DNA from: an uncultured virus (IMG/VR IMGVR_UViG_3300030116_002442)
Taxonomy: Duplodnaviria > Heunggongvirae > Uroviricota > Caudoviricetes
Virus record (IMG/VR): IMGVR_UViG_3300030116_002442
Length of the DNA: 20,000 bases
Direction: 5' to 3' (one strand)
Position numbers and translations under genes: made by a program. Of this stretch, positions 1 to 15,029 are shown one piece after another; the first letter of the stretch is position 1, and each line of letters opens with the position of its first letter. The notes beneath the pieces were generated by a model, which ran no database searches, was not told where the DNA came from, and saw only the letters and a list, made by a program, of their open reading frames with translations.

Positions 1-1416
1 AAATCTAGCAGTATCAGCTCCTTCATCTCTAGAGTTTATAGGTATAATACCATCATTTTTTATATGATATAAAACTGTTTGCATATCCATACCTATATTA
101 GAAGGCATTTGTGATACATCATAAACTACTGCTTTACCACCCGCTCTTGATAATGTAAGTTCTATGTGATACATAACTACATTATATAAAGTTTGTATAT
201 GTTTTAAAACATCTACTAAACTATTTACTCTACCTGTAGACATATTATGCACGCATCCTACATAAGATAAAGAAGTTGGTCCTATATCGTCTACAGACCT
301 TACTTGATTTGGTCTTCTTCTACATCTAGTTACTATTCTACCACCTATCTTTGTTCCTTCCCAAATATCATCTACATATTTAGTTATAATCTCTTCATCT
401 TTTCTTGCCTTATAATCATCTTTTACCATTTTTCTAAAAGGCGCATCTGGATTGTGTTTATTAGGAGAAACTTTGTATTTTACAGCTCTTATGGATTTCC
501 ATTCACCATGTATAAGTCTTATTCTTACACCAGTAGAAGTATCATATTGCACCCACTCTATGTTTGTGTTGTAACTACCTAATTCAGTTCCAGAAGATAT
601 ATGCCTCATGTTTTCAAGCTCCATTACTTCTTTTTTACTTAACTCATCTCCATATTCGTCTAGTATTTCATTAACACTTAACCATCTTTGTTCTACAACC
701 CATTGTGAGTTATCTAAATAGTCAGAGTCTATTGCTGTGTCAAAAGCAATGTTTCTAGGGTCTACTCTTCTAACATATGGGTCTCCATTTAATATTTCTG
801 TTTTATAAAATACTTTACCTGTAACTAATAAATCTCTAAATCCACTTTTAAATAAATCTTTCCATCTATGTCTTTCCATTAAATAAGCTAAACCATCTTC
901 TACAGATTCTTCTACAGCCTCTTTATACGTATATCTCATGAAAGTCTCTATGTCATCAGGAATTTCTAAATCTGAATTATCTTGATTTATTTCCATTCCC
1001 ATTACATCATTTATCTCTTTCTTAATATCTACTAGCATTTTTTCCATTACCATAGATACTTTAGCGTCTTGTTTTCTATTAACTGCAGATTTATTAATAG
1101 AACTAACTTTAGTCTCTAAAGGTCTTCTTAATTCTTCACTTGTCAACAAATCTATTTTAGGAGCAATTATATTGTAGTTTGTCATTCTAGCAGGAAAGGG
1201 CGTGCCATATTGGTCAGTTACATATTCATAATCTTTTGGGTCAAAATGACCATGATAAGCTTGATAGTTTCTAATATCTTTATATCTATCGTTTATATAT
1301 AAACTGTTATGGTGTTGAGCTATATATGGAGCCATAGCGTCCAAGTTTTGTTCACACCAATCTTTATTTTTCTTTTTGTCACTAAGCAATTGCCTAGGAA
1401 AATTTACATGCGGCAT
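1..1416 (-). CDS. Portal protein, crAss-like (partial; runs off the window start)
   Basis: Not in the ORF track. Manual translation from ATG 1416 is open to base 1: MPHVNFPRQLLSDKKKNKDW...FPARMTNYNIIAPKIDLLTSEELRRP...FRDLLVTGKVFY...RRVDPRNI...DIWEGTKIGG...SLVDVLKHIQTLYNVVMYHIE. These motifs resemble crAss-like portals, and the gene lies directly downstream of TerL. Confidence 0.85.
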   Translation of the reverse strand, partial: MPHVNFPRQLLSDKKKNKDWCEQNLDAMAPYIAQHHNSLYINDRYKDIRNYQAYHGHFDPKDYEYVTDQYGTPFPARMTNYNIIAPKIDLLTSEELRRPLETKVSSINKSAVNRKQDAKVSMVMEKMLVDIKKEINDVMGMEINQDNSDLEIPDDIETFMRYTYKEAVEESVEDGLAYLMERHRWKDLFKSGFRDLLVTGKVFYKTEILNGDPYVRRVDPRNIAFDTAIDSDYLDNSQWVVEQRWLSVNEILDEYGDELSKKEVMELENMRHISSGTELGSYNTNIEWVQYDTSTGVRIRLIHGEWKSIRAVKYKVSPNKHNPDAPFRKMVKDDYKARKDEEIITKYVDDIWEGTKIGGRIVTRCRRRPNQVRSVDDIGPTSLSYVGCVHNMSTGRVNSLVDVLKHIQTLYNVVMYHIELTLSRAGGKAVVYDVSQMPSNIGMDMQTVLYHIKNDGIIPINSRDEGADTARF

Positions 1417-1419
1417 ATC

Positions 1420-3240: not shown

Positions 3241-3242
3241 AT

Positions 3243-3419
3243 TTAATCTTTTTGTCCCTCTATTGCTTTTTTCTCTTCTGGTAACCTTGCTTCACTTAAT
3301 TTACCACCTACTTTAAAAAATGTTTCCATTCTTTTTTTATGTGCTTTTAACTTATCTTCTTCTATAAAATTATCTCCGTCTCTAACGTACTTAGTACCAT
3401 TTATTTTTATCTTATTCAT
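3243..3419 (-). CDS. Hypothetical protein, 58 aa (MNKIKINGTKYVRDGDNF...AIEGQKD)
   Basis: Manual ORF that fills the gap. Its start overlaps the upstream stop (ATGA) and its stop lies 2 nt before the TerL start. Confidence 0.7.
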   Translation of the reverse strand: MNKIKINGTKYVRDGDNFIEEDKLKAHKKRMETFFKVGGKLSEARLPEEKKAIEGQKD

Positions 3420-3943
3420 ATCTTAGATTTTATATTCATTTGCTCTTCTAAGTAACTCATTTTAGCCTCTCCTTTTATTTTCTTTCTTTCTCCTCTTCTT
3501 TCTATTGCATCTAATAATTTTTGTCTAGTGTTTAATACTTTCTCTACACCTATCATTATTTTTTGCATACTTTCAGCATTATCTTCATTAATCTTCACAT
3601 TCTTCATTAGCTGAGTGTACTCATCTATCTTTTCATTAAAAGCTATTAGTTGAGCGTCTAATGGGTCAAACTGTAGCTCTTTATATTTTTTAATTGCGTT
3701 AGCAATTTTTTCGTTTCTAATACCTTTCCAATTATAAGTATCAAACACAGCTTTACTTACTGACTTTACTTGTTCTCTCTCTACAAAGTGCCTATAAGGA
3801 GAATCATAATCACATACTAAAGCCACCCATAATATTCCTTTCAACCCAAATTCTTCTACTACCTCTCTAAACTCTTCAATAGCATACAAACCATCGTCTG
3901 TTTCTATAATTTCCCCCCGCTTATCAATGTTTAGTAAATACAT
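3416..3943 (-). CDS. Conserved protein upstream of TerL; possible terminase small subunit
   Basis: 175 aa, helical/coiled-coil C-terminal half, DYDSPY motif, position upstream of TerL. Function is inferred from position. Confidence 0.55.
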   Translation of the reverse strand: MYLLNIDKRGEIIETDDGLYAIEEFREVVEEFGLKGILWVALVCDYDSPYRHFVEREQVKSVSKAVFDTYNWKGIRNEKIANAIKKYKELQFDPLDAQLIAFNEKIDEYTQLMKNVKINEDNAESMQKIMIGVEKVLNTRQKLLDAIERRGERKKIKGEAKMSYLEEQMNIKSKI

Positions 3944-3944
3944 A

Positions 3945-4418
3945 CTATGTTGTTGTGTTTAACGCTACAAACAATTCTAATTTACAAGTAGCTGTATTAG
4001 CAAGTGCAGTAATAGTCTCTATATCTATTTGTGTAGCACTTGAGTCATGAGCGGCGTCACTTGTAAAAAATTGAGGGTGTTCTGTTGATGTATTTGGTGT
4101 TGCAAGTATAAAGCTTCTACCAGCATCTAACCTAAAAGCGGCAACGGAAGCAGTTGAACTTTCTTTTTCTATACCTATTGTTATAAAATTTGTTGTATCT
4201 AAATTTGTTAATCTTACATATTCTACATCGTCTTGGTCTAAAGTTGATATACCAGCTGCGGCAGATGCAAATGTTAATAAGTTTATTTCAGAAGTTGGCA
4301 CCTCTACAATAGTTTTTAAACATTGAGTGATACCAGCAATAGACTTAGTTTGTGTGGAATTAAATTTTTGACCATTTAACGAAAGGGTCTCTGTAACTGT
4401 AGTTGTTAATGTAGCCAT
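3945..4418 (-). CDS. Putative virion protein, paralog family A (copy 1)
   Basis: 157 aa, Thr/Ala/Ser-rich, beta-strand pattern. Shares YVR(L/I)T and K(L/V)ELF(V/I)A motifs with the neighbouring gene. Confidence 0.6.
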   Translation of the reverse strand: MATLTTTVTETLSLNGQKFNSTQTKSIAGITQCLKTIVEVPTSEINLLTFASAAAGISTLDQDDVEYVRLTNLDTTNFITIGIEKESSTASVAAFRLDAGRSFILATPNTSTEHPQFFTSDAAHDSSATQIDIETITALANTATCKLELFVALNTTT

Positions 4419-4426
4419 ATGTTATA

Positions 4427-4885
4427 TTATTTTGCGTCAGTACTTGCTATAAACAATTCAACCTTTCCTTTACCTCTCACACAATATGCTTTAACAGAAT
4501 CTATATCTTTCAAAGCAGTATAATCTGCAGCATCTATACTATCTCCTTCAGCAAATGTTGATAATGTATGAGAGTATATGTAATAAGATTCTCCTTGTGA
4601 TAGTTCGTAAAGTTTACAAAGGTCGCCTTCGCTATTTACTTCTACAATCATAGGTTCAGCACCTAAGCTTGTTATTCTAACATATTTAACAGCTCCATCG
4701 TCAAACACACCTCCGCTTACAGTATCTGCATGTGTAGTGTATAAAGTTGTTACAGTTCCTTGTTTAAAAGAAAATACTCTTTCGTGAACATCAGTAATGT
4801 TTGGTATTTGTAGCGTCTTTACGTTTCCGTAACTTTTTCCTTGGACACGAACTTTTTCAGTATGGGTTATTGTAAGTATAGACAT
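4427..4885 (-). CDS. Putative virion protein, paralog family A (copy 2)
   Basis: 152 aa, collinear similarity to 3945..4418. Confidence 0.6.
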   Translation of the reverse strand: MSILTITHTEKVRVQGKSYGNVKTLQIPNITDVHERVFSFKQGTVTTLYTTHADTVSGGVFDDGAVKYVRITSLGAEPMIVEVNSEGDLCKLYELSQGESYYIYSHTLSTFAEGDSIDAADYTALKDIDSVKAYCVRGKGKVELFIASTDAK

Positions 4886-5178
4886 TATTTTTTTATTTTA
4901 AATTTTAGTTTCCATACACCATGTTCTACATATGTGTATGATTCATTAACATATTCTCCTGTGTCGTAATTTAAATAGGTTTCATAACCTTCATATACGC
5001 CTCCCCCTACATATGATATAGATTTATCGGCTATTTTATAACCTTTATCTATTAAATTCATTATTATATCATCTTCTTTTTTTACGATAGATGAAAACTC
5101 TTTAAAAAACGTGTTATGATACAATTCACCCTTAAGCGTCTTGTATATAGACCCGTATTTTGTTTTTTCTAAAAACAT
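4885..5178 (-). CDS. Hypothetical protein, 97 aa
   Basis: ORF tightly packed with the downstream gene; TAnnTTTG box 4 nt upstream of the ATG. Confidence 0.7.
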   Translation of the reverse strand: MFLEKTKYGSIYKTLKGELYHNTFFKEFSSIVKKEDDIIMNLIDKGYKIADKSISYVGGGVYEGYETYLNYDTGEYVNESYTYVEHGVWKLKFKIKK

Positions 5179-5182
5179 TACT

Positions 5183-5190
5183 CAAAGATA
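5183..5190 (-). promoter_or_regulatory. Bacteroidota-type -7 promoter box (TATCTTTG)
   Basis: Matches TAnnTTTG, AT-rich upstream, 4 nt before ATG 5178. Confidence 0.7.
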
Positions 5191-5208
5191 TGAAAATTTA
5201 ATGACATG

Positions 5209-5805
5209 TTAATTTCTGTTTGTAGAAATAGATGTTAACACTTTATCAACACCAACTACATAAGGTATATCTCTTGTGTTTTTACCTTCTGAGCTTAAAA
5301 TTATGTCATTGTTTTTTATCTCTCTAAACTCTTTATTTAAAAATATTAATACTGGTAAATGCTCTCCTTCGTCTATAGTTAACCTTACTTCGTCTATCAT
5401 TCCAGCAGTTCTTTCAAAAAACAAAGATAATGTAGTGTTATTGTAAGCTGCTGAACCCACAAAAGTATTTATAGGATATGAATACACATAGTCTTCTGTT
5501 AATAAAGTTCTTTCTACAAATACATTATAAGGTTTTTTTTCAAAATCATTTACTACATCATCACTTATTGTGTTAGTTACTGTTACTCTAGTAGCAATAG
5601 TTGATGCAGATACAGTTCCTATAGTTTTTTTAGTTCCTTCATCATTAATATATTTTACAACATCTCCTAATTTTAATTTTTTTGTTGACCAATCCACATA
5701 ACCTGGGTCAGTGTCTTCCCAATATTGATTAATAAGGTTGCTTGTAACTGTAGATTTACCTAATTTTATTATAGTGGAATTATATGAAAATATTATATGA
5801 TACAT
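5209..5805 (-). CDS. Hypothetical protein, paralog family B (with a large N-proximal insertion)
   Basis: 198 aa. The C-terminal half (YPINTFVG...LSLFF...VRLTI...KEF) matches the family-B pattern. Confidence 0.65.
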   Translation of the reverse strand: MYHIIFSYNSTIIKLGKSTVTSNLINQYWEDTDPGYVDWSTKKLKLGDVVKYINDEGTKKTIGTVSASTIATRVTVTNTISDDVVNDFEKKPYNVFVERTLLTEDYVYSYPINTFVGSAAYNNTTLSLFFERTAGMIDEVRLTIDEGEHLPVLIFLNKEFREIKNNDIILSSEGKNTRDIPYVVGVDKVLTSISTNRN

Positions 5806-6107
5806 TATTTTGTAACTATTTTAGTAAACGAACCTACAGCAGTCACATCTTGTACGTCATACCTTTCTTCTAAATCAGAAAATACTATTACTGATTCTGA
5901 AGATGTGTTAAATATCTCAGCAATAGATTTTATTACCCTTTCCCCTCTACCGCTAGTAACTGTTAAAGGTATTCTGTAAGAAAGTGGCGCTTTTTCAAAA
6001 TACAAATCTACTAGTATAGCTGAATTGTACTTGCCACCCATAAAATGCCTTACTGGTAATAGTAAATAATCTGATTCGGTGTTTACAAACAATACGTGTC
6101 TTTCCAT
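5805..6107 (-). CDS. Hypothetical protein, paralog family B (minimal form)
   Basis: 100 aa; LPVRHFMG...VDLYF...IPLTV...EIF. Confidence 0.65.
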   Translation of the reverse strand: MERHVLFVNTESDYLLLPVRHFMGGKYNSAILVDLYFEKAPLSYRIPLTVTSGRGERVIKSIAEIFNTSSESVIVFSDLEERYDVQDVTAVGSFTKIVTK

Positions 6108-6111
6108 TATG

Positions 6112-6119
6112 CAAATATA
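6112..6119 (-). promoter_or_regulatory. Bacteroidota-type -7 promoter box (TATATTTG)
   Basis: TAnnTTTG, 4 nt before ATG 6107. Confidence 0.7.
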
Positions 6120-6121
6120 CT

Positions 6122-6150
6122 AAAAAAAACAGGAGGCCAGAAAGACCTCC
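6122..6150 (-). terminator. Intrinsic terminator
   Basis: Minus strand reads GGAGGTC-TTTCT-GGCCTCC followed by TGTTTTTTTT. Confidence 0.75.
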
Positions 6151-6183
6151 CATCCCATGAAAACTGAACTAAGAAAAGAACTA

Positions 6184-6191
6184 CAAAGATA
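6184..6191 (-). promoter_or_regulatory. Bacteroidota-type -7 promoter box (TATCTTTG) with no downstream ORF before the terminator
   Basis: Shares TTCATATCTTTG with the promoter at 5183-5194. Confidence 0.6.
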
Positions 6192-6204
6192 TGAATTATT
6201 TTTT

Positions 6205-6561
6205 TTATCGTTTTCCGCCAAAATATTCCTTTGCAAATCCTTCCTTAACTAATAAATCGTTTACGCTAATATACTCATTTTCTTTTTTTATGAATAATTC
6301 TCCTAACACCCTACCAAACTTACCCTTACCATGAGACTTCATAATTATATTATCTTCTTCTAACATTTCTATTAACCTTTCTTTAGAAGCAAGACCTCTA
6401 GCTTTTTCTTCTAAATCTCTTGTTCTACTTTCAGGAGCGTTTATTCCATACATTCTTATTCGCCTTTTAATGTGAGTGTTAAAACCTAAGTCAATCATAA
6501 CATCTAATGTATCACCATCAACTACCCTGTCTATCTTTACTCCATAATTGTATTTTTCCAT
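6205..6561 (-). CDS. Thermonuclease (staphylococcal nuclease-like) family protein
   Basis: RVVDGDTLDV, RIRMYGINAPES and GKFGRVLG motifs. Confidence 0.9.
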   Translation of the reverse strand: MEKYNYGVKIDRVVDGDTLDVMIDLGFNTHIKRRIRMYGINAPESRTRDLEEKARGLASKERLIEMLEEDNIIMKSHGKGKFGRVLGELFIKKENEYISVNDLLVKEGFAKEYFGGKR

Positions 6562-6562
6562 A

Positions 6563-6652
6563 TCACAAGTTTATATCGTCGGGCGCCTGGTCTATAATGT
6601 GTTTCTTTAACCAAACGCGCAAGCGTTTTAAAAATTTTTTATACCAACCCAT
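6563..6652 (-). CDS. Small basic/amphipathic peptide, 29 aa (MGWYKKFLKRLRVWLKKHIIDQAPDDINL)
   Basis: Manual ORF that fills the gap. The ATG abuts the upstream stop, and the stop is 1 nt before the nuclease start. Confidence 0.6.
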   Translation of the reverse strand: MGWYKKFLKRLRVWLKKHIIDQAPDDINL

Positions 6653-7390
6653 TTAATACACAGCTACTATAGTTACCCCTCCTCCGTATACCTCTTCTCC
6701 ATTTGCTTGTGCTAATTCTATTAATAAATAATTTGTTTCATCCGCAGTAACATCTGTAATATCTATTGCTGTACCTATGTTACCTGTTCCTCTACTTGTA
6801 ACTGTTTTGCTATTTATATCTGCTTCGTATACTGTAACTGCAGATGTTGCGCTACCATATATATTAACTACAGTAGCTTTAAAACCCTTTGGTATAGTTA
6901 CAGAAGCATATAGTGGGGCGGTAGAAAAAGACTCTACCCACCTATCACTACCAGTGTCATCTATCATTACAGGTCTACCTACATCATCTGCTATAAAGTC
7001 TCTTGGTAATATTTTTATAAGATTTCTACTTCCATGCCAGCCATTATCATGACTATTACCCGAACTATACGTCCAACTTAAATCTGATATATGTGATGAT
7101 GGGAATGTTGAGGTAGCTGTATTAAATTCTATGTATATGTTGTCTCCTGTAGAAAATTCTTTAGTTATATCTTCTAATACCTCTTTATGTTTGTTATTAG
7201 TTATAGTAAGCGTAACAGCAAAATTATTCATACCTTTAGTATCTGTATTTTCTACTAAGGGTGTAAAATATAAATTTAACTCATTATCAGCATTAGGGTG
7301 AGCTCCTGTAAAATTATCTAATGGCACAAATACTTCACCTTCTGTTTGATTGTTTGTAGCACTTTTATTTAATAGTATAAATTTTCTCAT
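6653..7390 (-). CDS. Paralog family B domain fused to a C-terminal beta-rich domain; possible virion/receptor-binding protein
   Basis: N-terminal VPLDNFTG...LNLYF...VTLTI...KEF. The C-terminal ~130 aa begin at GWHGSRNLIKILPRDF and are beta-rich. Confidence 0.6.
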   Translation of the reverse strand: MRKFILLNKSATNNQTEGEVFVPLDNFTGAHPNADNELNLYFTPLVENTDTKGMNNFAVTLTITNNKHKEVLEDITKEFSTGDNIYIEFNTATSTFPSSHISDLSWTYSSGNSHDNGWHGSRNLIKILPRDFIADDVGRPVMIDDTGSDRWVESFSTAPLYASVTIPKGFKATVVNIYGSATSAVTVYEADINSKTVTSRGTGNIGTAIDITDVTADETNYLLIELAQANGEEVYGGGVTIVAVY

Positions 7391-7749
7391 TATGTATCTT
7401 GTATATTTACAGTTATAGAAAAAATACTAGTAACACCAGCAATAGAATACTTACCACTTACATCGTCACCTATTTCTATTAAATAATTTTCACCATTAGA
7501 AAACTCTTCCATAATAGCTCTAAATACAGTTCCAGATGACCCAGTTGATGTGTTTATCACTACATTATCAGTGGCAGTATTAGCAGTAGATTTAAACTCA
7601 TGCATGCATTTAAAGTTTAACATTACCATTGTAGAGTCTATAGTATAACCGCCTTCAAATCTACTCAAAGGATATAAACAAGAAGAAGTTTGGTCGTCGT
7701 CGTCAGCTACATTAGCTACATTTCTAAAGTATACATATTTATCATTCAT
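7390..7749 (-). CDS. Hypothetical protein, paralog family B
   Basis: 119 aa; YPLSRFEG...VMLNF...VVINT...EEF. Confidence 0.65.
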   Translation of the reverse strand: MNDKYVYFRNVANVADDDDQTSSCLYPLSRFEGGYTIDSTMVMLNFKCMHEFKSTANTATDNVVINTSTGSSGTVFRAIMEEFSNGENYLIEIGDDVSGKYSIAGVTSIFSITVNIQDT

Positions 7750-7753
7750 ACAT

Positions 7754-7761
7754 CAAATTTA
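7754..7761 (-). promoter_or_regulatory. Bacteroidota-type -7 promoter box (TAAATTTG) heading the late module
   Basis: TAnnTTTG, 4 nt before ATG 7749, with an A-tract upstream on the minus strand. Confidence 0.7.
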
Positions 7762-7904
7762 CAAAATTTTTATTTTTTTTATTTTTTTAGTGTAGGCACG
7801 TTTCTGTGAAGGTCTATATTGTTACGCCCCCACCGTCTCTCATTCTTCAAACCCCCGAGGCCTCAACATAACATCTGTCTATGTAACATAAAAAAGGATT
7901 GTTA

Positions 7905-7929
7905 GTTTTGCTGTTCTGTATTGTATTAA
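7905..7929 (+). repeat. Early-region motif copy 1 (GTTTTGCTGTTCTGTATTGTATTAA)
   Basis: 23/25 identical to 8486-8510; core also present at 8874, 9664 and 11304. Confidence 0.75.
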
Positions 7930-7945
7930 CTAAAACTATATTACT

Positions 7946-8191
7946 ATGAACAAGTTATTTATTTATTTACCATTAGGTTATGTTATATTAGGATGGACTA
8001 TATTCTTATCATGTCTTGTCTTCACAGAACCTAACTACCAAGCGTTACTAATATTACTACTATGTATTATGTTAGTAAAGTATTACCTATTCTATGCTAT
8101 CAAATATGTTAGACAATCAGAGAAAGATGAGATAGAATGGAAAGAATATCTTAAAGAATTAAAAGAATTAAGAGAAAAGAGGGACATTTAG
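7946..8191 (+). CDS. Small membrane protein, two predicted TM segments plus a charged C-terminus
   Basis: 81 aa with two hydrophobic stretches; followed by a terminator. Confidence 0.75.
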   Translation: MNKLFIYLPLGYVILGWTIFLSCLVFTEPNYQALLILLLCIMLVKYYLFYAIKYVRQSEKDEIEWKEYLKELKELREKRDI

Positions 8192-8203
8192 TCCCTTTTT
8201 TTT
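8180..8203 (+). terminator. Intrinsic terminator
   Basis: AGGGAC-ATTTA-GTCCCT followed by a T-run. Confidence 0.8.
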
Positions 8204-8396
8204 ATAAAAGGTTGTACCTGCGGTACGATTTGTTTAATATTTGTTATAAAAACGAGTGTATGTGTACAAGTATGAACCACTATATTCTGCCATTATCACT
8301 ACTATGTGTTACTCAGTGTGTTACATGCGTTATGTTGTTCTGTACTATTTAGGTAATTAGTATTGTTATGCTGTGCTTGTTGTCCCACACCCGCCC

Positions 8397-8425
8397 AAGT
8401 TACGAAAAAAAAATGACATTGTCAA
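8397..8425 (-). promoter_or_regulatory. sigma70-like promoter TTGACA-N17-TAACTT overlapping a TGACATTGTCA palindrome
   Basis: Perfect -35 hexamer, 17-nt spacer, 4/6 match at -10; inverted repeat at 8414-8424. Confidence 0.5.
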
Positions 8426-8485
8426 GTCTATTCTTAAGTATTTATGCTACTTCATACTATTTAGATGTTCTGTCTGTTATGTATT

Positions 8486-8510
8486 GTTTTGCTTTTCTTT
8501 ATTGTATTAA
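8486..8510 (+). repeat. Early-region motif copy 2 (GTTTTGCTTTTCTTTATTGTATTAA)
   Basis: Near-identical to 7905-7929; directly precedes a structured element. Confidence 0.75.
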
Positions 8511-8513
8511 TAC

Positions 8514-8594
8514 TGATAAACCTCTTCTATAGGTGCTAATTGATTGAAAGATATTAGCTATATAGTTTGTTCAGATGAGCAAAGGGGTTTATCA
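8514..8594 (+). ncRNA. Candidate structured RNA, 3-way junction
   Basis: P1 TGATAAACCTC/GGGGTTTATCA; P2 CTATA/TATAG plus GCTAAT/ATTAGC; P3 TTTGTTC-AGAT-GAGCAAA. Confidence 0.5.
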
Positions 8595-8610
8595 TATCAT
8601 TCATAAGTAA

Positions 8611-8702
8611 GGATTAGTCAGTAGCCTAACTAACAACTGAAGACACCGAGATGTGGATAAACTATAATCTAAGGTTACGCCCTCTCACCTTAAGCAGAGG
8701 GC
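8611..8702 (+). ncRNA. Candidate structured RNA: hammerhead-like element followed by an H-type pseudoknot
   Basis: GTC...CTGAAGA-CAC/GTG-GATAAAC with TAGT/ACTA pairing; then interleaved stems TAAGGT/ACCTTA and GCCCTCT/AGAGGGC. Confidence 0.35.
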
Positions 8703-8724
8703 ATTATATTTTAGCTATGAAAAT

Positions 8725-8871
8725 ATGAGTCTAAATAAATCAGTACTTGTAGTCATATTGTGGTTTGCAATGTGTCTATTTGTTTTAACATCACTATCAT
8801 CATGCAGTACAAGTAAAATCAACTCATGTTGGGACAGTAATGGTAAAACTAAAAATGGTATATACAAATAA
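8725..8871 (+). CDS. Small lipoprotein, 48 aa (MSLNKSVLVVILWFAMCLFVLTSLSS-CSTSKINSCWDSNGKTKNGIYK)
   Basis: Manual ORF with a basic N-region, hydrophobic h-region and lipobox LSS-C. Confidence 0.65.
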   Translation: MSLNKSVLVVILWFAMCLFVLTSLSSCSTSKINSCWDSNGKTKNGIYK

Positions 8872-8873
8872 TT

Positions 8874-8891
8874 GTTTTGCCGTTCGTTATT
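8874..8891 (+). repeat. Early-region motif copy 3 (GTTTTGCCGTTCGTTATT)
   Basis: Starts 3 nt after the stop at 8871, upstream of ORF 8946. Confidence 0.7.
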
Positions 8892-8945
8892 ATAGGTTTT
8901 GTTTGCTCGCCTTGAAGAGTAATATTAATTTAATTTTATTAAGCT

Positions 8946-9527
8946 ATGACAACATTAGCAAATTTTAAAAAGCTTGAAAATGTTTCAAGTGTACCTGTAG
9001 AGTATATGGATAGAACTCCAGGTATTAAAACAGGGGTATTAGATACTCTTACACCATCATTTACATACAAAATGTACAATGGTATTGATAAAAATGGTAA
9101 CATAAAAACTACCGAGCCTAAGCCATATGATATGGCAGATATCGTTCTTATTGAAAGACGAAAAGATAAAACTGGCCAATGGTATGACAAAGAATTACCT
9201 ACATTCTCAATGAACTTTAAATCTGTAGAACAATCTGACAACAGGGTTACATTTTATTCCATGTTATTCAGAAATTGTACATCTAAAGACATTGTTAATG
9301 AAATGTCCACAGGTAAATTAATCAAATCTAAAGCTTTCGTTAGTATTCTAAATGCTAATGATATACAACCTAATCAGTTTGTAGATATGGTTAAAAACCT
9401 AAAAACACCTATCTCGTTTGCTCAATACAAGCGTGATAATGGACAACTAAACTTCGTTGATGTAGATTACTACAACGAAAACAAAGCACAATCTTCTAAT
9501 GCTACTACAGAAGAACCTGTGTTTTAA
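8946..9527 (+). CDS. Hypothetical protein with an SSB-like acidic C-terminal tail (…TTEEPVF)
   Basis: 193 aa with a flexible linker and acidic-Pro-x-Phe end; has its own upstream motif and terminator. Confidence 0.75.
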   Translation: MTTLANFKKLENVSSVPVEYMDRTPGIKTGVLDTLTPSFTYKMYNGIDKNGNIKTTEPKPYDMADIVLIERRKDKTGQWYDKELPTFSMNFKSVEQSDNRVTFYSMLFRNCTSKDIVNEMSTGKLIKSKAFVSILNANDIQPNQFVDMVKNLKTPISFAQYKRDNGQLNFVDVDYYNENKAQSSNATTEEPVF

Positions 9528-9530
9528 TTC

Positions 9531-9563
9531 TAAGGGGGACTTCATCGTTCCCCTTATTTTTTT
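9531..9563 (+). terminator. Intrinsic terminator
   Basis: TAAGGGGGAC-TTCATC-GTTCCCCTTA followed by T7, directly after the stop. Confidence 0.85.
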
Positions 9564-9663
9564 AACCCCTGTCAGCACAGGGGAGCTTAGCCCTACCAAT
9601 CGACGGCGTGGGCGCGCTTAGTCACTATCATGCACGGTAGTGTGCCAATAGGTACAATTATTT

Positions 9664-9681
9664 GTTTGGCTGTTCTTTGCT
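9664..9681 (+). repeat. Early-region motif copy 4 (GTTTGGCTGTTCTTTGCT)
   Basis: Matches the core GTTTKGCYDTTC; upstream of ATG 9717. Confidence 0.65.
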
Positions 9682-9716
9682 TGTTGTTTTTTGTTTAACC
9701 TTTAATACTTTATGCT

Positions 9717-9824
9717 ATGAATATAGAAATTAATTCTGAGGACATGATTATATTGTCCTTGTACAACGAAAATAATGTAAATGAAGATATGTTTGATACC
9801 TTTGTGTCAAGCTATATCTCATAA
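9717..9824 (+). CDS. Small acidic peptide, 35 aa (MNIEINSEDMIILSLYNENNVNEDMFDTFVSSYIS)
   Basis: Manual ORF with the same leader (TTTAACCTTTAA…TTTATGCTATG) as ORF 10690. Confidence 0.6.
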   Translation: MNIEINSEDMIILSLYNENNVNEDMFDTFVSSYIS

Positions 9825-9829
9825 TTAAA

Positions 9830-10127
9830 TAAACGATAATCCATGGGTGATAATACATATTTAACAGAAAAGTGCTTGCACGAAGTAATTAACTATGTAT
9901 ATATGATGGTAGGAGCGACCAAAGCGGTGGCGGTTGTTTGACGTTAGGTGCACACTTGTTAGGGCCAATATCACAAAGCTCTTTAGAAACTCTTAGGCAA
10001 GGGACAGAAAGCCCCCTACATTTATTTGTATGGGTAAGTAATTATCTTGAACGATTAGACTCAAGAATTGAGAAAAAAAACTGGGCCACTCCTATTAATC
10101 GACAGACCACATTCTCCGTATCGTTTA
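9830..10127 (+). ncRNA. Candidate ~300-nt multi-domain ncRNA
   Basis: Closing stem TAAACGATA/TATCGTTTA; internal long-range pairs TAGGA/TCCTA plus GTGGC/GCCAC; several hairpins; no convincing ORF. Confidence 0.5.
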
Positions 10128-10136
10128 ACTTGTAAG

Positions 10137-10227
10137 ATAAGACTATTAGGTTGCAGAACAAGATACTTGTTGGTAGTGTATACTACATTGGAGGATAAAT
10201 ATCCTTTTTCTGTAGCCAATGTCTTAT
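10137..10227 (+). ncRNA. Candidate structured RNA, 4-way junction
   Basis: ~19-bp closing stem enclosing three 5-bp hairpins. Confidence 0.55.
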
Positions 10228-10251
10228 TATTTTTTAATTAATACTTATAAC

Positions 10252-10581
10252 ATGAAAAAATTACTTAAATCAATTAATTTATTGATAGCTGATTATCTTT
10301 CAGGTAAAGATATGGCTATCATACCTAAATCAGAACTCACTTTATTTATTAAACAATGTGAAGATGATGTACATTCCTTAAAACATGAAGTTCAAAACAT
10401 AACTATAGATGGCGAAAGTGTTACAAGAATGATACAAGATGAAGTTATAAATGCTTTAGAGTTTCGTTCTTATGACCTTGAACAATATATAGAAGGCTGT
10501 GGTTCGTGTGATGAGGTAATCACAGATTTAAAATCAAGAATAAATGAGTTTAAAACTAAAAACAATTTACGTAAAAATTAG
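10252..10581 (+). CDS. Hypothetical protein (start re-assigned to MKKLLKS)
   Basis: The track start at 10219 lies inside the 4-way junction stem. ATG 10252 has the TTAATACTTATAAC leader seen at other early genes. Confidence 0.7.
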   Translation: MKKLLKSINLLIADYLSGKDMAIIPKSELTLFIKQCEDDVHSLKHEVQNITIDGESVTRMIQDEVINALEFRSYDLEQYIEGCGSCDEVITDLKSRINEFKTKNNLRKN

Positions 10582-10587
10582 TAATAT

Positions 10588-10671
10588 AGGGAGTGCTCGT
10601 CGTAAGTAGCGGTTATTCACTCAGACGTACGTGTAAGCTGCAGCTAAGCACGTGAGAGCTCCCTTTTTTTT
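10588..10671 (+). ncRNA. Branched stem-loop ending in a U-tract (structured terminator/attenuator candidate)
   Basis: AGGGAGTGCTC/GAGAGCTCCCT closing stem, internal ACGTG/CACGT stem, T-run. Confidence 0.45.
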
Positions 10672-10689
10672 AACCTTTAAATTTATGCT

Positions 10690-10908
10690 ATGGAAATATT
10701 TGCAATTAATATGAAAACATATATGTTCAATAATTATACTGATGAAAGCTTTTTCAAAATAACTATTATTGATAATATGTTATACCAAACATTAGAAAGT
10801 GCTGTAAAGCAATTAGAATTATTATATGAAACTATTGATACAGATAATACAAATGTAGAGTATTACATAAGTACATACACATTACAATTACAAGATGATT
10901 ATAATTAA
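10690..10908 (+). CDS. Hypothetical protein, 72 aa
   Basis: ORF with the conserved early leader. Confidence 0.7.
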   Translation: MEIFAINMKTYMFNNYTDESFFKITIIDNMLYQTLESAVKQLELLYETIDTDNTNVEYYISTYTLQLQDDYN

Positions 10909-11113
10909 TAAACAAGAGGTTGATATCACCTCTTTAACAGTAGAAGATGTCAATAGATGTGACTTTCCGAAGTTCACTGATGCGTTCTTGTCAGCAGGTA
11001 AATACACAAATGGTAACAACCTGAACGGCAAGGAGTTAGAACAGCTTGAAAAAGAATACCCAGACTTAGTAAACCAGTTAGCAGTTGAATCGTATTGGGA
11101 TATAGGTCTATAA
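10895..11113 (+). CDS. Hypothetical phage protein, 72 aa (DFPKFTDAF motif)
   Basis: Overlaps the upstream stop; acidic globular composition. Confidence 0.7.
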   Translation: MIIINKQEVDITSLTVEDVNRCDFPKFTDAFLSAGKYTNGNNLNGKELEQLEKEYPDLVNQLAVESYWDIGL

Positions 11114-11126
11114 TTTTTCATAGCGA

Positions 11127-11203
11127 GCCACAGGTAAGTGTGGTACTTTTATAGTAAAATTAATACGAAACCAACTGAAGAGTGCTTACCCACTCTTTTT
11201 TTT
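11127..11203 (+). ncRNA. Candidate kissing-loop RNA ending in a terminator hairpin
   Basis: GCCACA-GGTAAG-TGTGGT and AAGAGTG-CTTACC-CACTCTT plus a T-run; the two loops are exact complements. Confidence 0.55.
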
Positions 11204-11229
11204 ATTCACTATCATTAATACTTACAACC

Positions 11230-11301
11230 ATGGAAGACTTAACCGACAATATATTTATAGGACTTATAGCAGTATTTATACTTTATATGATATTCGGGTA
11301 G
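11230..11301 (+). CDS. Single-TM micropeptide, 23 aa (MEDLTDNIFIGLIAVFILYMIFG)
   Basis: Manual ORF with a TTAATACTTACAACC leader like other early genes; ends 3 nt before motif copy 5. Confidence 0.55.
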   Translation: MEDLTDNIFIGLIAVFILYMIFG

Positions 11302-11303
11302 CT

Positions 11304-11321
11304 GTTTGGCTATTCGTTATT
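11304..11321 (+). repeat. Early-region motif copy 5 (GTTTGGCTATTCGTTATT)
   Basis: 15/18 identical to copy 3; upstream of ORF 11349. Confidence 0.7.
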
Positions 11322-11348
11322 CCTTTTGTTTAACCTTAATTTATAACT

Positions 11349-11894
11349 ATGAAAGAAAAACTTCAAACCGAAACAATATACAATGCATTGATTAATTATC
11401 AAATGTCATGCTCAAATGACCATAAAACTAAAAGCTTACAAGAAGCTATTTATCAATTAGAAGATATTAAAAACAACAAAGCTTTTATTAAAAACATTAC
11501 TAAAGCAAAAGATATTAAAAATGAAGCATGTTTAACTATAGATAATGTAGTTCATTTCTTAGAAACTTTTATTAAAATGGAGCCAACAGTAATTTCATTT
11601 ATAAAAGAAGATAATGGCACTACAGTGCATACTTTTATAAGGCATAACTCTATAGATTATCAAGAATGTGATAAATACAATCCTATTATGGGAGAAACAA
11701 ATGCTAGAGTTGAGCATGTGTCTAGAAAAATGTTTTCATTCTTCTTAAATATAATAGAATTGATGTCAGATACTCAATTAACGTACATGAAAAAAATATT
11801 TCATAACGAAATAAAAAGAAGAAAAGATATAGACAAAGTTGTTGATAAAGCTTCAAAAAAAATATTAAAAGATAATATAGATGAAAATAAATGA
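11349..11894 (+). CDS. Hypothetical protein, 181 aa
   Basis: Long ORF with the conserved leader; no recognised motif. Confidence 0.75.
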   Translation: MKEKLQTETIYNALINYQMSCSNDHKTKSLQEAIYQLEDIKNNKAFIKNITKAKDIKNEACLTIDNVVHFLETFIKMEPTVISFIKEDNGTTVHTFIRHNSIDYQECDKYNPIMGETNARVEHVSRKMFSFFLNIIELMSDTQLTYMKKIFHNEIKRRKDIDKVVDKASKKILKDNIDENK

Positions 11895-12075
11895 TGAAAT
11901 GCGCAATGGTATTCCTTGGGAAGCCATTGAAGATTACTATGATATGTTAGAGGAGCCTGAGTGGTTTTACTTCCATTGCTCTGATAATGTGTCGTATGAA
12001 ATTACCAGTAAAGGAGAAACCTTTGCTGATGAAAAATTATTAACTAAAAAATTATATAAAAAATGTGTGGATTAG
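11881..12075 (+). CDS. Hypothetical acidic protein, 64 aa
   Basis: Overlaps both neighbours by 13-14 nt. Confidence 0.65.
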   Translation: MKINDEMRNGIPWEAIEDYYDMLEEPEWFYFHCSDNVSYEITSKGETFADEKLLTKKLYKKCVD

Positions 12076-12977
12076 TAGGATTTAGTGGTAAAGCTGATAC
12101 AAGTGTATTTAAAGCTTTACATTTATTAGCAGATAATGACAGTAGGGGCGGACACTCTTCAGGATTATTTGCAAATGGTAAAATATACAAGACTGTTGAT
12201 GAGTCTATGAATATATTACCTATGCTTAAAACTAGCGTAACTGGTAGTGTTCTTATTGGACACACTAGATATGCAACTCACGGTAAACATACTGTTGAGA
12301 ACGCTCACCCTTATCAATATAATAACATTGTAGGAGCACACAATGGTGTATTATCTAATTATGAAGAGGTGGGTAAAAAGTTTAATATTAAAAAGACCAC
12401 CGTTGACTCTCAAATGATATTTAAATTACTTGCACAAGAAAAAGACGACAACCATTTAGGTTTATTTAGTGGTGCTAAGAATGTTTTATTTACCAAAGGA
12501 GACAACAAGCTTTATGTATACCGTAGAGATAACCCATTGTTTTACTTAGAAACAGAGGAGGGTATATATGTAAGTTCTTTAGAAGAAGGTCTTAAAAATA
12601 TTAAGAAAAAGAACGAAGTTGTAATAGAAGTTCCAGAAAATAAATTATTTACATTAGAAAATGGCAAGATTGTAAAAACAAAGAAAATTAAACATAAACC
12701 AATCGCATCTAAATCTACTGTAAATACAGACTGGAGAAGCTATGGTGGATACACTCCAAGAAGTGAGCTCTATGGTAATTACACTTATGACAGTTATGGT
12801 GGTTATGATTTTCAAGAAGAAGATGATAAGCTACAAGAACAAGAGTTTGAACAACTTGCAGATTTTGCTGACTTTGTGCATGAATTGTATTGTACTGACA
12901 GATTTACTGATACAGAGCAACACAAGCTTATGGAATTGTATAACTTTTTAAACACTTATGCTTATGAGTACTATTAA
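12063..12977 (+). CDS. Class II (Ntn) glutamine amidotransferase
   Basis: N-terminal MCG (catalytic Cys2), RGGHSSG, GHTRYATHG, NAHPY, HNGVLSN and VDS motifs. Confidence 0.92.
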   Translation: MCGLVGFSGKADTSVFKALHLLADNDSRGGHSSGLFANGKIYKTVDESMNILPMLKTSVTGSVLIGHTRYATHGKHTVENAHPYQYNNIVGAHNGVLSNYEEVGKKFNIKKTTVDSQMIFKLLAQEKDDNHLGLFSGAKNVLFTKGDNKLYVYRRDNPLFYLETEEGIYVSSLEEGLKNIKKKNEVVIEVPENKLFTLENGKIVKTKKIKHKPIASKSTVNTDWRSYGGYTPRSELYGNYTYDSYGGYDFQEEDDKLQEQEFEQLADFADFVHELYCTDRFTDTEQHKLMELYNFLNTYAYEYY

Positions 12978-14316
12978 AGAAAAATTAGTTGAATGTGTAT
13001 GTGGTAATCATTTTCCTATTGAAGAGGTTGTAGACCTTTATGGTGGAGGTTATGTTCATAATGAAGAATTAGATGATTATGTACAATTAGATGAATCTTG
13101 TGGGGAATCTCAACTTAGTAACGGTGGACTTTGGTGCCACATACACGATACTATAGAAGTTGATTGTGACAGCAGCTATTATCCTGCAGAAAACTATCAT
13201 GACTTTGACATTGACTGGTGTCATGCTAATGAAACCTATATGTATACAGATAATATGTACTGGGGGTATGTTAGTAGAAGAAATGAGGGTTGGTTCTGTA
13301 ATGAAAGTACTGATTATGTTTATTCAGAACGTGATGATGTGTATTTTATGGACTGCGATATAGCTCGAGATAGAGACTATGAATATTGTGAATCATCAGA
13401 TGATTATCTGCATGTAGATGACATAGAAAACTCAGGAAGCGAGTGGGATAACACTAGCGACACAGCTAATCTATGTAAAAAGTATAGAAAAACTTTTGGT
13501 ATGCCATATACTTTTGGTGTAGAAATAGAAACTAGCGATGGTTACTTAGAATTTGATAGCAGCCTAAATGTTAAAGCTGTATACGATGGTAGTATAAACG
13601 GTAAAGAATATGTTACTGGTTGTATGTCAGGTGATGGAGGTGTTAATATGTTACAGAGAATATGCCAAAAAATTAGTCATACTTGTTATGTAGACTCTAG
13701 TTGTGGCGTTCATGTTCATATAGGTGGTGCTAACTTCAATAGAAGATTTAGTATATTATCTGTTATGTTAGGTGTAATGCTTGAGACGCAAATATTTTCT
13801 ATGATGCCTCCATCAAGAATGAAGTCTAGTTATTGTTTGAAAATACCTGATAAGTTCTATAAGTTAAGAACTATTAACAAAAGACTATACCCAAGAACAT
13901 ACAAAAGAATGTTAAATTTATTAGCAGAGTATGTTCATGTTGAAGGGTCTGAGTTTTCTAAAAACAATAACAAAAAACTTTCTCATCCAGGTGGTAGGTA
14001 CGCTAGTTCTAGATATAAGTGGTTAAATCTAAATAACTGTAGTTATAATAGAACTGGCCCTAATACCATTGAATTCAGGTGTCATAGTGGCTCTAAAGAT
14101 TTCACTAAAATATATAATTGGTTATTAATATGTATGTGTTTTGTGAAGTATGTAGAGAATAATTCTAGAGACATTATAAATTCATACAATGATTGGATTA
14201 AGGGGCATGTTAGTAAAAGAATAACACTGGATACAATTATAAAAGCTGGACTTGGTAAAAAATCTGATTTCTTGATACAATACATCAACAACAGAATGGA
14301 AAAGTTTTCAGGTTAA
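12958..14316 (+). CDS. Putative amidoligase (COOH-NH2 ligase, glutamine synthetase-like fold) with an acidic repeat N-terminus
   Basis: TFGVEIE, DGSI, EYVT, SCGVHVHIG, RYKWLN and TIEFR motifs; adjacent to the GATase-II. Confidence 0.85.
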   Translation: MLMSTIKEKLVECVCGNHFPIEEVVDLYGGGYVHNEELDDYVQLDESCGESQLSNGGLWCHIHDTIEVDCDSSYYPAENYHDFDIDWCHANETYMYTDNMYWGYVSRRNEGWFCNESTDYVYSERDDVYFMDCDIARDRDYEYCESSDDYLHVDDIENSGSEWDNTSDTANLCKKYRKTFGMPYTFGVEIETSDGYLEFDSSLNVKAVYDGSINGKEYVTGCMSGDGGVNMLQRICQKISHTCYVDSSCGVHVHIGGANFNRRFSILSVMLGVMLETQIFSMMPPSRMKSSYCLKIPDKFYKLRTINKRLYPRTYKRMLNLLAEYVHVEGSEFSKNNNKKLSHPGGRYASSRYKWLNLNNCSYNRTGPNTIEFRCHSGSKDFTKIYNWLLICMCFVKYVENNSRDIINSYNDWIKGHVSKRITLDTIIKAGLGKKSDFLIQYINNRMEKFSG

Positions 14317-14329
14317 TCGCTGCTCAATT

Positions 14330-14456
14330 AAGTGTGTGTAATAGTTATTTAAAATATATCTTGTCCGTAACTATGTGCGGCCCGTGATTCCGCGCACACA
14401 CTTTAACATAAGGTTTAGATTAGGCCTAGAGCTGAATACTCTATCAACCAATCTAA
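14330..14456 (+). ncRNA. Candidate structured RNA: 3-way junction plus an interrupted hairpin
   Basis: AAGTGTGTGT/GCACACACTT enclosing ATAGTTAT/GTAACTAT and GCGG/CCGC; then TTAGATT/AATCTAA with TAGAG/CTCTA. Confidence 0.5.
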
Positions 14457-14460
14457 TAAT

Positions 14461-14493
14461 ACCCCTACTATTTGGCGTGTAGGGGTTCCTTTT
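14461..14493 (+). terminator. Terminator-like hairpin
   Basis: ACCCCTAC/GTAGGGGT followed by TCCTTTT. Confidence 0.6.
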
Positions 14494-14530
14494 GTTGATA
14501 ACTTTTTTTTATTATTAACAATTATTAATA

Positions 14531-14538
14531 TAAATTTG
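14531..14538 (+). promoter_or_regulatory. Bacteroidota-type -7 promoter box (TAAATTTG) heading the replication module
   Basis: TAnnTTTGCA, 7 nt before ATG 14546. Confidence 0.7.
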
Positions 14539-14545
14539 CAACCTC

Positions 14546-14863
14546 ATGGATAAATTACAAAAACAATTATGGTTCGATACTTTCTGGAAAGAGTATCCCA
14601 AAAAGGTAGGTAAAAAACAATGTAAGACATACTGGTCTAAACTAAAAGTGTCAGCAGAGTTATTCACTATCATTATGGACAGTTTGGTTGCTCAAAACGT
14701 CCTACGTGCAAAATATGCGCAAAATAATGCGTGGTACCCTAATCCTCCCGACCCTATTCGTTGGCTTAAATACGAACGTTGGGAAGATGAATTACCACCA
14801 ATGGAAACTGAAGTTAAACAGGTTTATAAAAAACCACAATACAAAAATTATGATGAAAGATAA
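14546..14863 (+). CDS. Phage replication-initiator/replisome-organiser C-terminal-like domain, stand-alone
   Basis: FDTFWKEYPKKVGK…W…P…WLKYERWEDE pattern; upstream of DnaB. Confidence 0.7.
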   Translation: MDKLQKQLWFDTFWKEYPKKVGKKQCKTYWSKLKVSAELFTIIMDSLVAQNVLRAKYAQNNAWYPNPPDPIRWLKYERWEDELPPMETEVKQVYKKPQYKNYDER

Positions 14864-15029
14864 TGTAATAGTAGATTACGATAAAGTGCAAGACGCTTTA
14901 CAATACTTCCAAGAATTTAGAATGGAAGAATTAAAACAAGACGACGCTTATTATATTAAACATATGATAAGGTATATAGAATACCTAGAGTTTAAAATAG
15001 ATGTTAAAAATAAAGCGTTAGGATTATGA
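14853..15029 (+). CDS. Hypothetical protein, ~58 aa (MKDNVIVDYD…)
   Basis: 3' part of track ORF 14688..15029; ATG at 14850 or 14853; ATGA overlap with dnaB. Confidence 0.65.
   Translation: MKDNVIVDYDKVQDALQYFQEFRMEELKQDDAYYIKHMIRYIEYLEFKIDVKNKALGL

Follow-up and report, generated by a model that had tools for sequence, protein, structure and literature searches.

Organization of the early region and its relatives

The DNA analyzed here is a 20,000-nt stretch (hereafter the window) of an uncultured virus of the Caudoviricetes (IMG/VR record IMGVR_UViG_3300030116_002442), and the features in question are predicted RNA structures in the spacers between its early genes. The G+C content of the window is 31%. 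Its left part (1–7749) carries minus-strand genes, including those for the portal and the large terminase; a divergent region follows, and from 7946 onward the genes lie on the plus strand, among them a replication-initiator-like gene and genes for a DnaB-like helicase, Sak4, NinB/Orf, RusA, and an exonuclease. The large terminase is 27–30% identical to terminases of crAss-like, Flavobacterium, and Cellulophaga phages. Because it is nearest to those of phages of Bacteroidota, the host likely belongs to this phylum. The region is the early-gene arm of an uncultured marine phage. An earlier reading of the bare sequence (hereafter the original prediction) had placed eight branched folds in the spacers: a three-way junction at 8514, a hammerhead-like element with a pseudoknot at 8611, a hairpin cluster at 9566, a domain of ~300 nt at 9830, a four-way junction at 10137, a branched terminator at 10588, kissing loops at 11127, and a three-way junction at 14330. 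Comparison with related phages supported four of them (10137–10227, 10588–10671, 11126–11201, and 14330–14403); the folds at 8611 and 9566 stood in part, that at 8514 on folding energy only, and that at 9830 did not stand. As judged from the aligned sequences, the conserved set is made up of these four elements plus small hairpins at 8209, 8679, and 9566:

8209–8231, plus strand: small hairpin GUACC-UGC-GGUAC directly 3' of the terminator of gene 7946–8191, found by a terminator scan
8679–8702, plus strand: 7-bp hairpin whose loop ACCUUA (8687–8692) is complementary to UAAGGU (8670–8675), a possible pseudoknot
9566–9583, plus strand: hairpin CCCCUGU-CAGC-ACAGGGG, directly after the terminator at 9531–9565
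10137–10227, plus strand: helix-closed junction with a 7-bp outer helix, an internal loop UAUUA/AAU, a 9-bp inner helix, and a variable interior
10588–10671, plus strand: three-way-junction RNA with a basal stem beside a U-run, a stem P2 with an invariant loop, and a stem P3 that tolerates inserts
11126–11201, plus strand: kissing hairpins, in which the hairpin loop GGUAAG is complementary to the terminator-hairpin loop CUUACC, followed by a U-run
14330–14403, plus strand: three-way-junction terminator after the amidoligase gene, with a (GU)n/(AC)n closing helix

A phage collection contained no DNA match to the window, and a 193-aa protein encoded in it had no relatives among viral contigs. 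The nearest record, G001, is a fragment of 8 kb without a match to the region. An amidoligase query yielded L001, a 98%-identical fragment, and L002, a contig of 67.8 kb with 60% protein identity. In a blastn comparison with L002, the conservation of the spacers exceeded that of the genes: 8609–8672 was 95% identical, 10589–10826 was 84% identical (~95% in the first 75 nt), and the hairpins at 11114 were intact, while most of gene 8946–9527 and the stretch 9830–10581 had no counterpart. Scans with exact words from the 10588 core gave 5 viral contigs and 14 marine metagenome contigs, and half-word scans gave 3 further viral contigs with the 10588 element. L004, L005, and L007 carry this element and are otherwise without DNA similarity to the window. 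Alternative forms of the junctions between cassettes were read from contigs of four marine DNA runs; no RNA run was among the sequencing runs found to contain the region.

A covarying three-way junction at 10588

The element at 10588 is, on the evidence of its alignment, the strongest of the set. We aligned 13 distinct variants from marine viral and metagenome contigs, and RNAalifold (run on an earlier 11-variant alignment) and a hand-drawn model agreed on a three-way junction. The basal stem consists of 7 + 2 pairs and adjoins a U-rich run, which follows the element in 13 of 13 variants. P2 consists of 4 + 3 pairs with an 11-nt loop, and P3 of 6 + 5 pairs with inserts of 6, 17, 18, 42, 43, 73, or 74 nt depending on the variant, often finishing with a small ACCUGCAGGU hairpin. 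Across the 13 variants, 98.6% of cells were paired, as against 31–53% for slid partners, and both sides were changed in 9 of the 30 pairs; on four of five measures, none of 500 shuffles matched the observed values. U-G occurs at two pairs, in 11 and in 12 of the 13 variants, respectively, and another pair takes the forms U-A, G-U, and A-U. These states fit an RNA, or at least the plus strand, and not a duplex cruciform, which bears out here the earlier claim that G-U pairs set the strand. The variants are 93, 99, 110, 111, 135, 136, 166, or 167 nt long; the insert lengths are not multiples of three, so the element is not coding.

The core of ~45 nt, from GCUCG to CGUAC, is near-invariant. The way in which members were collected, by exact words, accounts for part of this invariance; half-word scans contributed a single loop change (GGUUAUUC to GGUGAUUC) plus an A-U pair state, nothing more. 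Proteins of families shared by the same phages differ widely, with an exonuclease 33% identical between the window and L007 and a Sak4-like protein 24% identical over a 92-residue local match between the window and L005. Since the core is near-invariant at these distances, the RNA appears to be far more constrained than the proteins.

The element occurs in differing surroundings. It lies among small early genes in the lineage of the window, between a gene with an SSB-like acidic tail and the replication-initiator gene in L007 (with an ATG close after the U-run), and between a similar gene with an SSB-like tail and the primase gene in L005. In four gene contexts it starts 6–16 nt past a stop codon, and in the window as in L007 the next ATG follows closely after the U-run. 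A covariance model found one copy per record in five of five virus records, three of which are at least 95% complete, and no second copy in the window. Two word scans of 185,579 bacterial and archaeal species genomes did not find the element, at a low sensitivity with which hosts may still carry it: a 22-mer of it had no match, and an 18-base pattern gave 9 matches in unrelated metagenome-assembled genomes, against ~17 expected by chance on our own estimate, with a single partial model match of 18 bits among them. As a separate observation, a second conserved long hairpin lies after the 10588-type element in L004 and L005 and before it in L034, L037, and L038; the two lineages close it with different helices, GGGCAGAG/CUCUGCCC and AGAACAAAG/CUUUGUUCU, and the loops have ..CCTGTTATACTTTGTGA.. 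in common.

Conserved helices at 10137, 11126, and 14330

In nine distinct variants of the 10137 element, the internal loop UAUUA opposite AAU is invariant, and the number of interior hairpins varies between one (L013) and three (window). In these variants 96.5% of cells were paired, against 31–53% in slid controls, and 3 of 16 pairs were changed on both sides. The element was also present on two more contigs. An ATG at 10219 falls within the 3' strand of the helix, and the next gene most likely begins at 10252, as it does in L052. Ahead of their 10137-type element, L052 (1–400) and L054 carry a string of helix-closed domains, two of them closed by CAGGG..CCCUG and followed by UAACUUA, and the third closed by AAAAGAAGGCAG..CUGCCUUCUUUU; these are further structured spacers in a similar style.

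For the 11126 element, seven distinct variants were compared. Pairing was 100% in the first hairpin, in the terminator hairpin, and in the 6-bp helix that joins their loops, and both-side changes affected one pair in the first hairpin and three in the terminator stem. Five variants have G-C at loop-loop pair 18–74, one has G-U, and one has A-U; the predicted kissing loops are thus supported, through this single covarying pair. The middle hairpin has UAC/GUA in the window and GAC/GUC in L002 when read by eye (the formal count was 43% paired, with misplaced columns).

At 14330, the closing helix recurs in L002 and G003 together with a U-run and two inner hairpins that differ in sequence; the tail in the window is only UUUAAC. 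The fold in L002 is the same as in the window, with a z score of −5.1 compared with −2.9 for the window. The second half of the stretch 14330–14500 is specific to the lineage:

14404–14500, plus strand: two further hairpins, the last at 14462–14485 with a U-rich tail, present only in the window and in the 98%-identical L001

The gene upstream belongs to a pair for a glutamine amidotransferase-like and an amidoligase-like protein (12063–14316), which overlap by 20 nt and are 60–77% conserved in relatives.

Folding energies and family searches

Folding energies were expressed as z scores against dinucleotide shuffles, and 40 coding tiles of 95 nt served as a control (mean −0.62, SD 1.12). The values for the eight folds on the plus and minus strands, respectively, were as follows:

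8514–8610: −3.6 / −2.2 (core 8514–8594, plus strand, −4.2)
8611–8724: −0.9 / −1.3
9566–9660: −1.9 / −2.2
9830–10136: +0.4 / −1.3
10137–10218: −3.3 / −1.5 (10137–10232, plus strand only, −4.9 to −5.9)
10582–10672: −2.0 / −2.7
11114–11230: −1.7 / −1.2
14330–14500: −4.0 / −4.7

Energy alone picked out three of the eight (8514, 10137, and 14330), and the other five lay between +0.4 and −2.0 on the plus strand. Folding energy by itself is a weak test in this window, because 2 of the 40 coding tiles also fell under −3. Comparison with relatives is more telling: the elements at 10137, 10588, and 11127 and the first half of that at 14330 are kept with compensatory changes, as are the hairpins 8679–8702 and 9566–9583, and the folds 8514, 9830, and 14404–14500 are confined to the lineage of the window. 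Of the checks proposed with the original prediction, the shuffle comparison singled out three folds and passed over five, and the search for covariation in marine viromes found compensatory changes at 10137, 10588, and 11127, with counts on 7–13 variants.

None of the folds had been recognized as a member of a named family, and the family searches agreed. A scan of the window against Rfam 15, including hammerheads, other ribozymes, riboswitches, small RNAs, and tRNA/tmRNA, gave no match at the gathering score, and neither did scans of 10 related loci. Five sub-threshold matches in 7700–14700 (16–28 bits against thresholds of 50–100) did not lie on any of the named folds, and ARAGORN found no tRNA in the window. 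Terminator-like sites numbered 10 in 7700–15000 against 2.3 expected. UAAG-type words were two to three times denser in the spacers, on small numbers, and the motif TTTAACC was not enriched (9 matches against 5.6 expected).

Cassettes gained and lost between the elements

The elements lie between codirectional genes, often 5–30 nt from the stop codon and the next start, and most end in U-runs. Two stretches between them behave as cassettes:

10252–10581, plus strand: gene cassette of one gene, between the 10137 and 10588 elements
10690–11113, plus strand: cassette of two small genes, between the 10588 and 11127 elements

The first is missing from L002, L008, and L017, in which the 10137 and 10588 elements adjoin, and a homolog occupies the same place in L052 and L054. 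The second is missing from L008, L018, L021, and L024, in which the flanking elements likewise adjoin; in these four, the 10137, 10588, and 11127 elements are contiguous behind a single gene and form a structured tail of ~330 nt. Natural contigs also join 10230 to 10584 (two runs) and 10659 to 11117 (one run). Neither cassette has upstream of it the T/G-rich motif TTTKGCTRTTC, a likely component of early promoters or leaders (see below). Because both are without this motif, the cassettes would have to be read through the elements. An integron-like attC reading of the joints was considered and dropped: an informal test of the window found no integrase among the 29 ORFs scanned, and the elements are conserved in sequence and mutually different.

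Comparison with known systems

Promoter-early stem-loops (PeSLs) of T4-type phages are described as small conserved intergenic regulatory sequences in variable early regions that mark points of gene insertion, deletion, or swapping (PMC4122927). The elements described here resemble them in lying at insertion, deletion, or replacement joints (10230–10584, 10659–11117, and 8508–8609) of variable early genes. A PeSL is one composite promoter/terminator stem-loop that recurs within a genome, whereas these elements are mutually unrelated and multi-helix, the covariance model finds 10588 as a single copy per genome, and a promoter part is only putative; by membership they are not PeSLs.

Early RNase III sites of phage T7 are interrupted helices of ~20 bp with an internal loop; they lie between codirectional cistrons, and the 3' ends that they leave carry protective hairpins. 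The same layout, with 7 bp, an invariant internal loop, and 9 bp making about two turns between cistrons, recurs in the 10137 element, which would be a putative cleavage site by this analogy; it differs in that its distal part is a variable multi-hairpin domain. The layout of an intrinsic terminator, a G+C-rich stem followed by a U-run, was found at 10588 (13 of 13 variants), 11177–11201, and 9531–9565, and in the L002 and G003 versions of 14330. The 10588 and 14330 elements are three-way junctions with 60–140 nt between the strands of the basal stem, and not simple short-loop terminator hairpins. Three-way-junction aptamers and processive antitermination RNAs, such as purine riboswitches or put of phage HK022, are likewise compact (~70 nt) and located in early leaders or operons; their stems covary, junction or loop nucleotides are invariant, and purine riboswitches also have loop-loop contacts. 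In contrast to both, the elements of this phage are without an Rfam match, the basal stem itself abuts the U-run, and P3 takes large inserts. Literature searches on stem-loops of Cellulophaga phages and on kissing-loop terminators turned up no description of such elements.

A survey of IMG/VR listed 8,495 candidate structured RNAs in viral contigs (Fremin, Bhatt, Kyrpides 2023; PMC10690425). Its motifs share several traits with those described here, being covarying, intergenic, and located in contigs of uncultured phages, many of them with Rho-independent terminators or beside replication genes (PMC10690425). Six of our contig names were queried, and none occurred in the six searchable supplementary files of the survey, three others not being searchable (PMC10690425).

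Possible roles of the conserved elements

The comparisons establish, at the level of sequence, several unrelated conserved plus-strand structures, their position, and the cassette joints; from these we infer that the elements are transcribed, that they terminate or process transcripts, and that they insulate neighboring genes. The reading we tentatively favor, at somewhat short of even confidence, is that the conserved elements punctuate early transcripts in cis, through partial termination, processing, and protection of 3' ends, and also serve as recombination linkers. Each spacer RNA domain, closed by its own helix, would fold independently on the plus strand. A domain with its basal stem beside a U-run may act as a partial terminator or 3'-end signal, and 10137, with its interrupted helix of 16 bp, may instead offer a site to a double-strand RNase. 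In either case the upstream message would have its 3' end protected by the domain, and the unstructured leader of the next, promoter-less gene would stay free. Homologous recombination between related phages would fall in the domains, because they are the only conserved DNA between the variable cassettes, and cassettes would be gained or lost at the domain borders. Processing signals or punctuation had also been among the roles proposed originally, and the intergenic position, the U-runs, and the cassette joints are in line with them. The further proposal of one coordinated system found no support; only position ties the elements together. For the proposed roles as decoys or against host defense, evidence was found neither in favor nor in opposition.

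Several points weigh against punctuation as the role of the elements. Efficient termination at 10588 would silence the genes right behind it. With z scores of −1.5 to −2.0, 10588 and 11127 do not stand out in folding energy, and three of the eight named folds are without any comparative support. The covariation is drawn from 7–13 related sequences, whose kinship inflates the shuffle control. The invariance of the 10588 core, part of it built in through collection by exact words, is far greater than a terminator or a protective hairpin needs.

This last point leads to an explanation that we consider possible and clearly less likely than punctuation, namely that at least one of the elements is a functional RNA in its own right and not passive punctuation. 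The 10588 element could be a terminator responsive to a ligand or protein, a self-cleaving RNA, or a trans-acting RNA derived from a 3' untranslated region; or the 10137–10588–11127 array could be a single early noncoding RNA of ~330 nt into which cassettes were inserted later. The P2 loop and junction of 10588 are near-invariant across phages with 24–33% protein identity while the stems covary, although the exact-word search favors an invariant core. Its P3 takes inserts of 6–74 nt, like the peripheral stems of ribozymes and aptamers, and it occurs once per genome. The three elements are contiguous behind one gene in L008-type genomes, and the covarying kissing loops imply a defined three-dimensional fold. 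However, there were no matches to the ribozyme, riboswitch, or small-RNA families of Rfam, no own promoter was seen, 10588 begins a few bases past a stop codon, and no partner protein, ligand, or target was identified. A more specific version, to which we give slightly less credence still, is that 10588 represents a new class of functional RNA in at least three deeply diverged marine phage lineages. In that case its invariant P2 loop and junction would either catalyze self-cleavage or recognize a ligand, a protein, or RNA polymerase, and would thereby determine whether transcription continues from early or SSB genes into those that follow. Together with the 10137 helix and the 11127 kissing-loop terminator it would form a modular RNA control array, with gene cassettes swapped around it.

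Roles at the level of DNA, as single-strand hairpins for replication or recombination or as the inverted ends of small mobile insertions (8514, perhaps 9830), seem improbable to us overall. They would fit the position of the 10588 element beside the replication-initiator gene in L007 and just before the primase gene in L005, and the equal stability of 14330–14500 on both strands, ahead of the replication-initiator gene of the window. Strains differ in whether they carry the 8514–8594 hairpin, whose inverted ends are 13 nt long, and in L002 a hairpin of 60 nt has been inserted between TATAAT repeats. On the other hand, read from the opposite strand the conserved U-G pairs would become A-C mismatches, the orientation is always that of the genes, and the U-run always comes after the basal stem. 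The conserved elements occur once each and retain their helices as the interior varies, which is the opposite of a mobile insertion, and for 8514 itself no second copy turned up in any of the loci fetched. Wobble pairs, constant orientation, and U-runs together make action at the DNA level less likely for the conserved elements; it is still reasonable for 8514 and for the symmetric region 14330–14500.

The least probable explanation, already disfavored by the covariation, is that nothing special is present, that is, ordinary terminators, promoters, and chance folds in AT-rich spacers, conserved through recent DNA exchange only. It would account for the 2 of 40 coding tiles with z under −3, for the failure of 9830, the 8611 block, and the rest of the 9566 cluster, and for the plain terminators at 8180–8205 and 9531–9565. 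It would not account for changes on both sides at 9, 3, and 5 pairs in three elements, for 94–99% pairing against 31–54% with slid partners, or for a 10588 element common to contigs otherwise without DNA similarity to the window.

Early regions of phages are usually annotated as small unknown genes with promoters and hairpin terminators; here the spacers are more conserved than the genes. They hold at least three unrelated covarying RNA folds, one of them common to phages otherwise without DNA similarity and another with a covarying loop-loop contact to a terminator. If the elements are control or processing modules, they would offer a handle on the timing and balance of early expression in uncultured marine phages, and they would account for the shuffling of promoter-less cassettes with expression left intact. 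For biochemical work, the 10588 element is a compact and well-defined candidate.

Lineage-specific folds and small hairpins

The remaining structures of the early region are the following:

8514–8594, plus strand: three-way-junction hairpin of 81 nt with 13-nt inverted ends, an insertion/deletion polymorphism
8609–8672, plus strand: conserved block of 64 nt without a convincing fold, which in relatives comes after the stop codon of a gene for a small membrane protein
9531–9565, plus strand: plain intrinsic terminator of gene 8946–9527, with a 10-bp stem and a T-run
9830–10127, plus strand: stretch of ~300 nt with a 9-bp closing helix UAAACGAUA/UAUCGUUUA, z +0.4, found in the lineage of the window only

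The predicted junction at 8514 is stable and missing in related strains. Neither a relative nor a second copy of it turned up in the window or the fetched loci. Contigs of two marine DNA runs skip 8508–8609, and a third run joins 8505 to 8609 with 235 other letters between. Of the features of a miniature inverted-repeat element, the inverted ends and the presence/absence polymorphism were found, with a single copy in the window and the fetched loci.

The block 8609–8672, 95% identical to L002, lies there between genes of ~70–78% identity, and 8609–8702 is 89% identical to L010. It is not coding, because strain variants at 8649, 8650, and 8652 abolish the ATG at 8651. A hammerhead at 8611 was rejected, with no Rfam match and a z score of −0.9; what remains of the predicted element is the hairpin 8679–8702 and its loop pairing. 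By eye, the stem GCCCUCU/AGAGGGC becomes GUCCUCU/AGAGGAU in L002 and CACUAU/AUAGUG in L010, and the loop complementarity is 6/6 in the window, 6/6 in L002, and 5/6 in L010, without covariation. Within the 8609-type block of L002, a perfect hairpin of 60 nt (4129–4187, AUGAGAG...CUCUCAU) lies between two TATAAT repeats and looks like a small mobile palindrome.

The 8209 hairpin has the same flanks in L008 (AAGGTTGT...ACGATTT), and its stem is changed there on both sides to GUUCC/GGAAC, as read by eye. Within the cluster predicted at 9566, the first hairpin is CCUCUGU...ACAGAGG in L002 and L014, with one pair changed on both sides (by eye), and the remainder of 9566–9660 is lineage-specific. The ~300-nt domain predicted at 9830 had neither a favorable energy nor relatives. 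A 65-aa ORF within it had a single match, 92% identical. At this position, relatives carry unrelated helix-closed domains of ~150–190 nt, and no clear kinship was found between the 9830 stretch and the domains at the same place in L002 and L017.

Missed ORFs and promoter-like motifs

Most spacers had been described as filled by folds almost from end to end. This is not the case, as they also hold promoter-like motifs and two short ORFs:

9717–9824, plus strand: missed 35-aa ORF, which aligns with an ORF of L002 with the same start context and stop
11231–11299, plus strand: missed 22-aa hydrophobic ORF, with a reading frame conserved in L002

In addition, a 48-aa ORF at 8725–8871 has a lipoprotein-type signal (..LTSLSSC..), and its 3' part is conserved in L002 and L010.

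The T/G-rich motif TTTKGCTRTTC had nine matches in the window against 2.4 expected, a number reached by none of 200 shuffles. Its plus-strand copies in the early and replication arm (7906, 8487, 8875, 9665, 11305, and 16344) lie 40–70 nt before gene starts. It fits neither the sigma-70 consensus nor the spacing of the Bacteroidota −33/−7 consensus. A second motif, TTCACTATCAT, occurs at 9621, 11205, and 14663 (and 8790), four matches against 0.9 expected; it sits just past terminators, 8–30 nt ahead of start codons, and is also found in L002, L010, and G003. The 9566 spacer holds the TCACTATCAT motif, the T/G-rich motif, and the 35-aa ORF. Both promoter-like motifs lie near some of the elements, and neither was found inside 10137 or 10588. 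The second motif and the invariant P2 loop of 10588 have the 9-mer TTATTCACT in common. Finally, a block GTCCCACACCCGCCCAAGTTACGAAAAAAAAATGACATTGTCAAGT at 8381–8430, which includes the palindrome TGACA-T-TGTCA, is near-identical in L002. In four marine DNA runs, its summed depth was three to eight times that of its neighbors, and many contigs diverged at 8427/8428 or before 8381–8401, as if the block were common to many different genomes.

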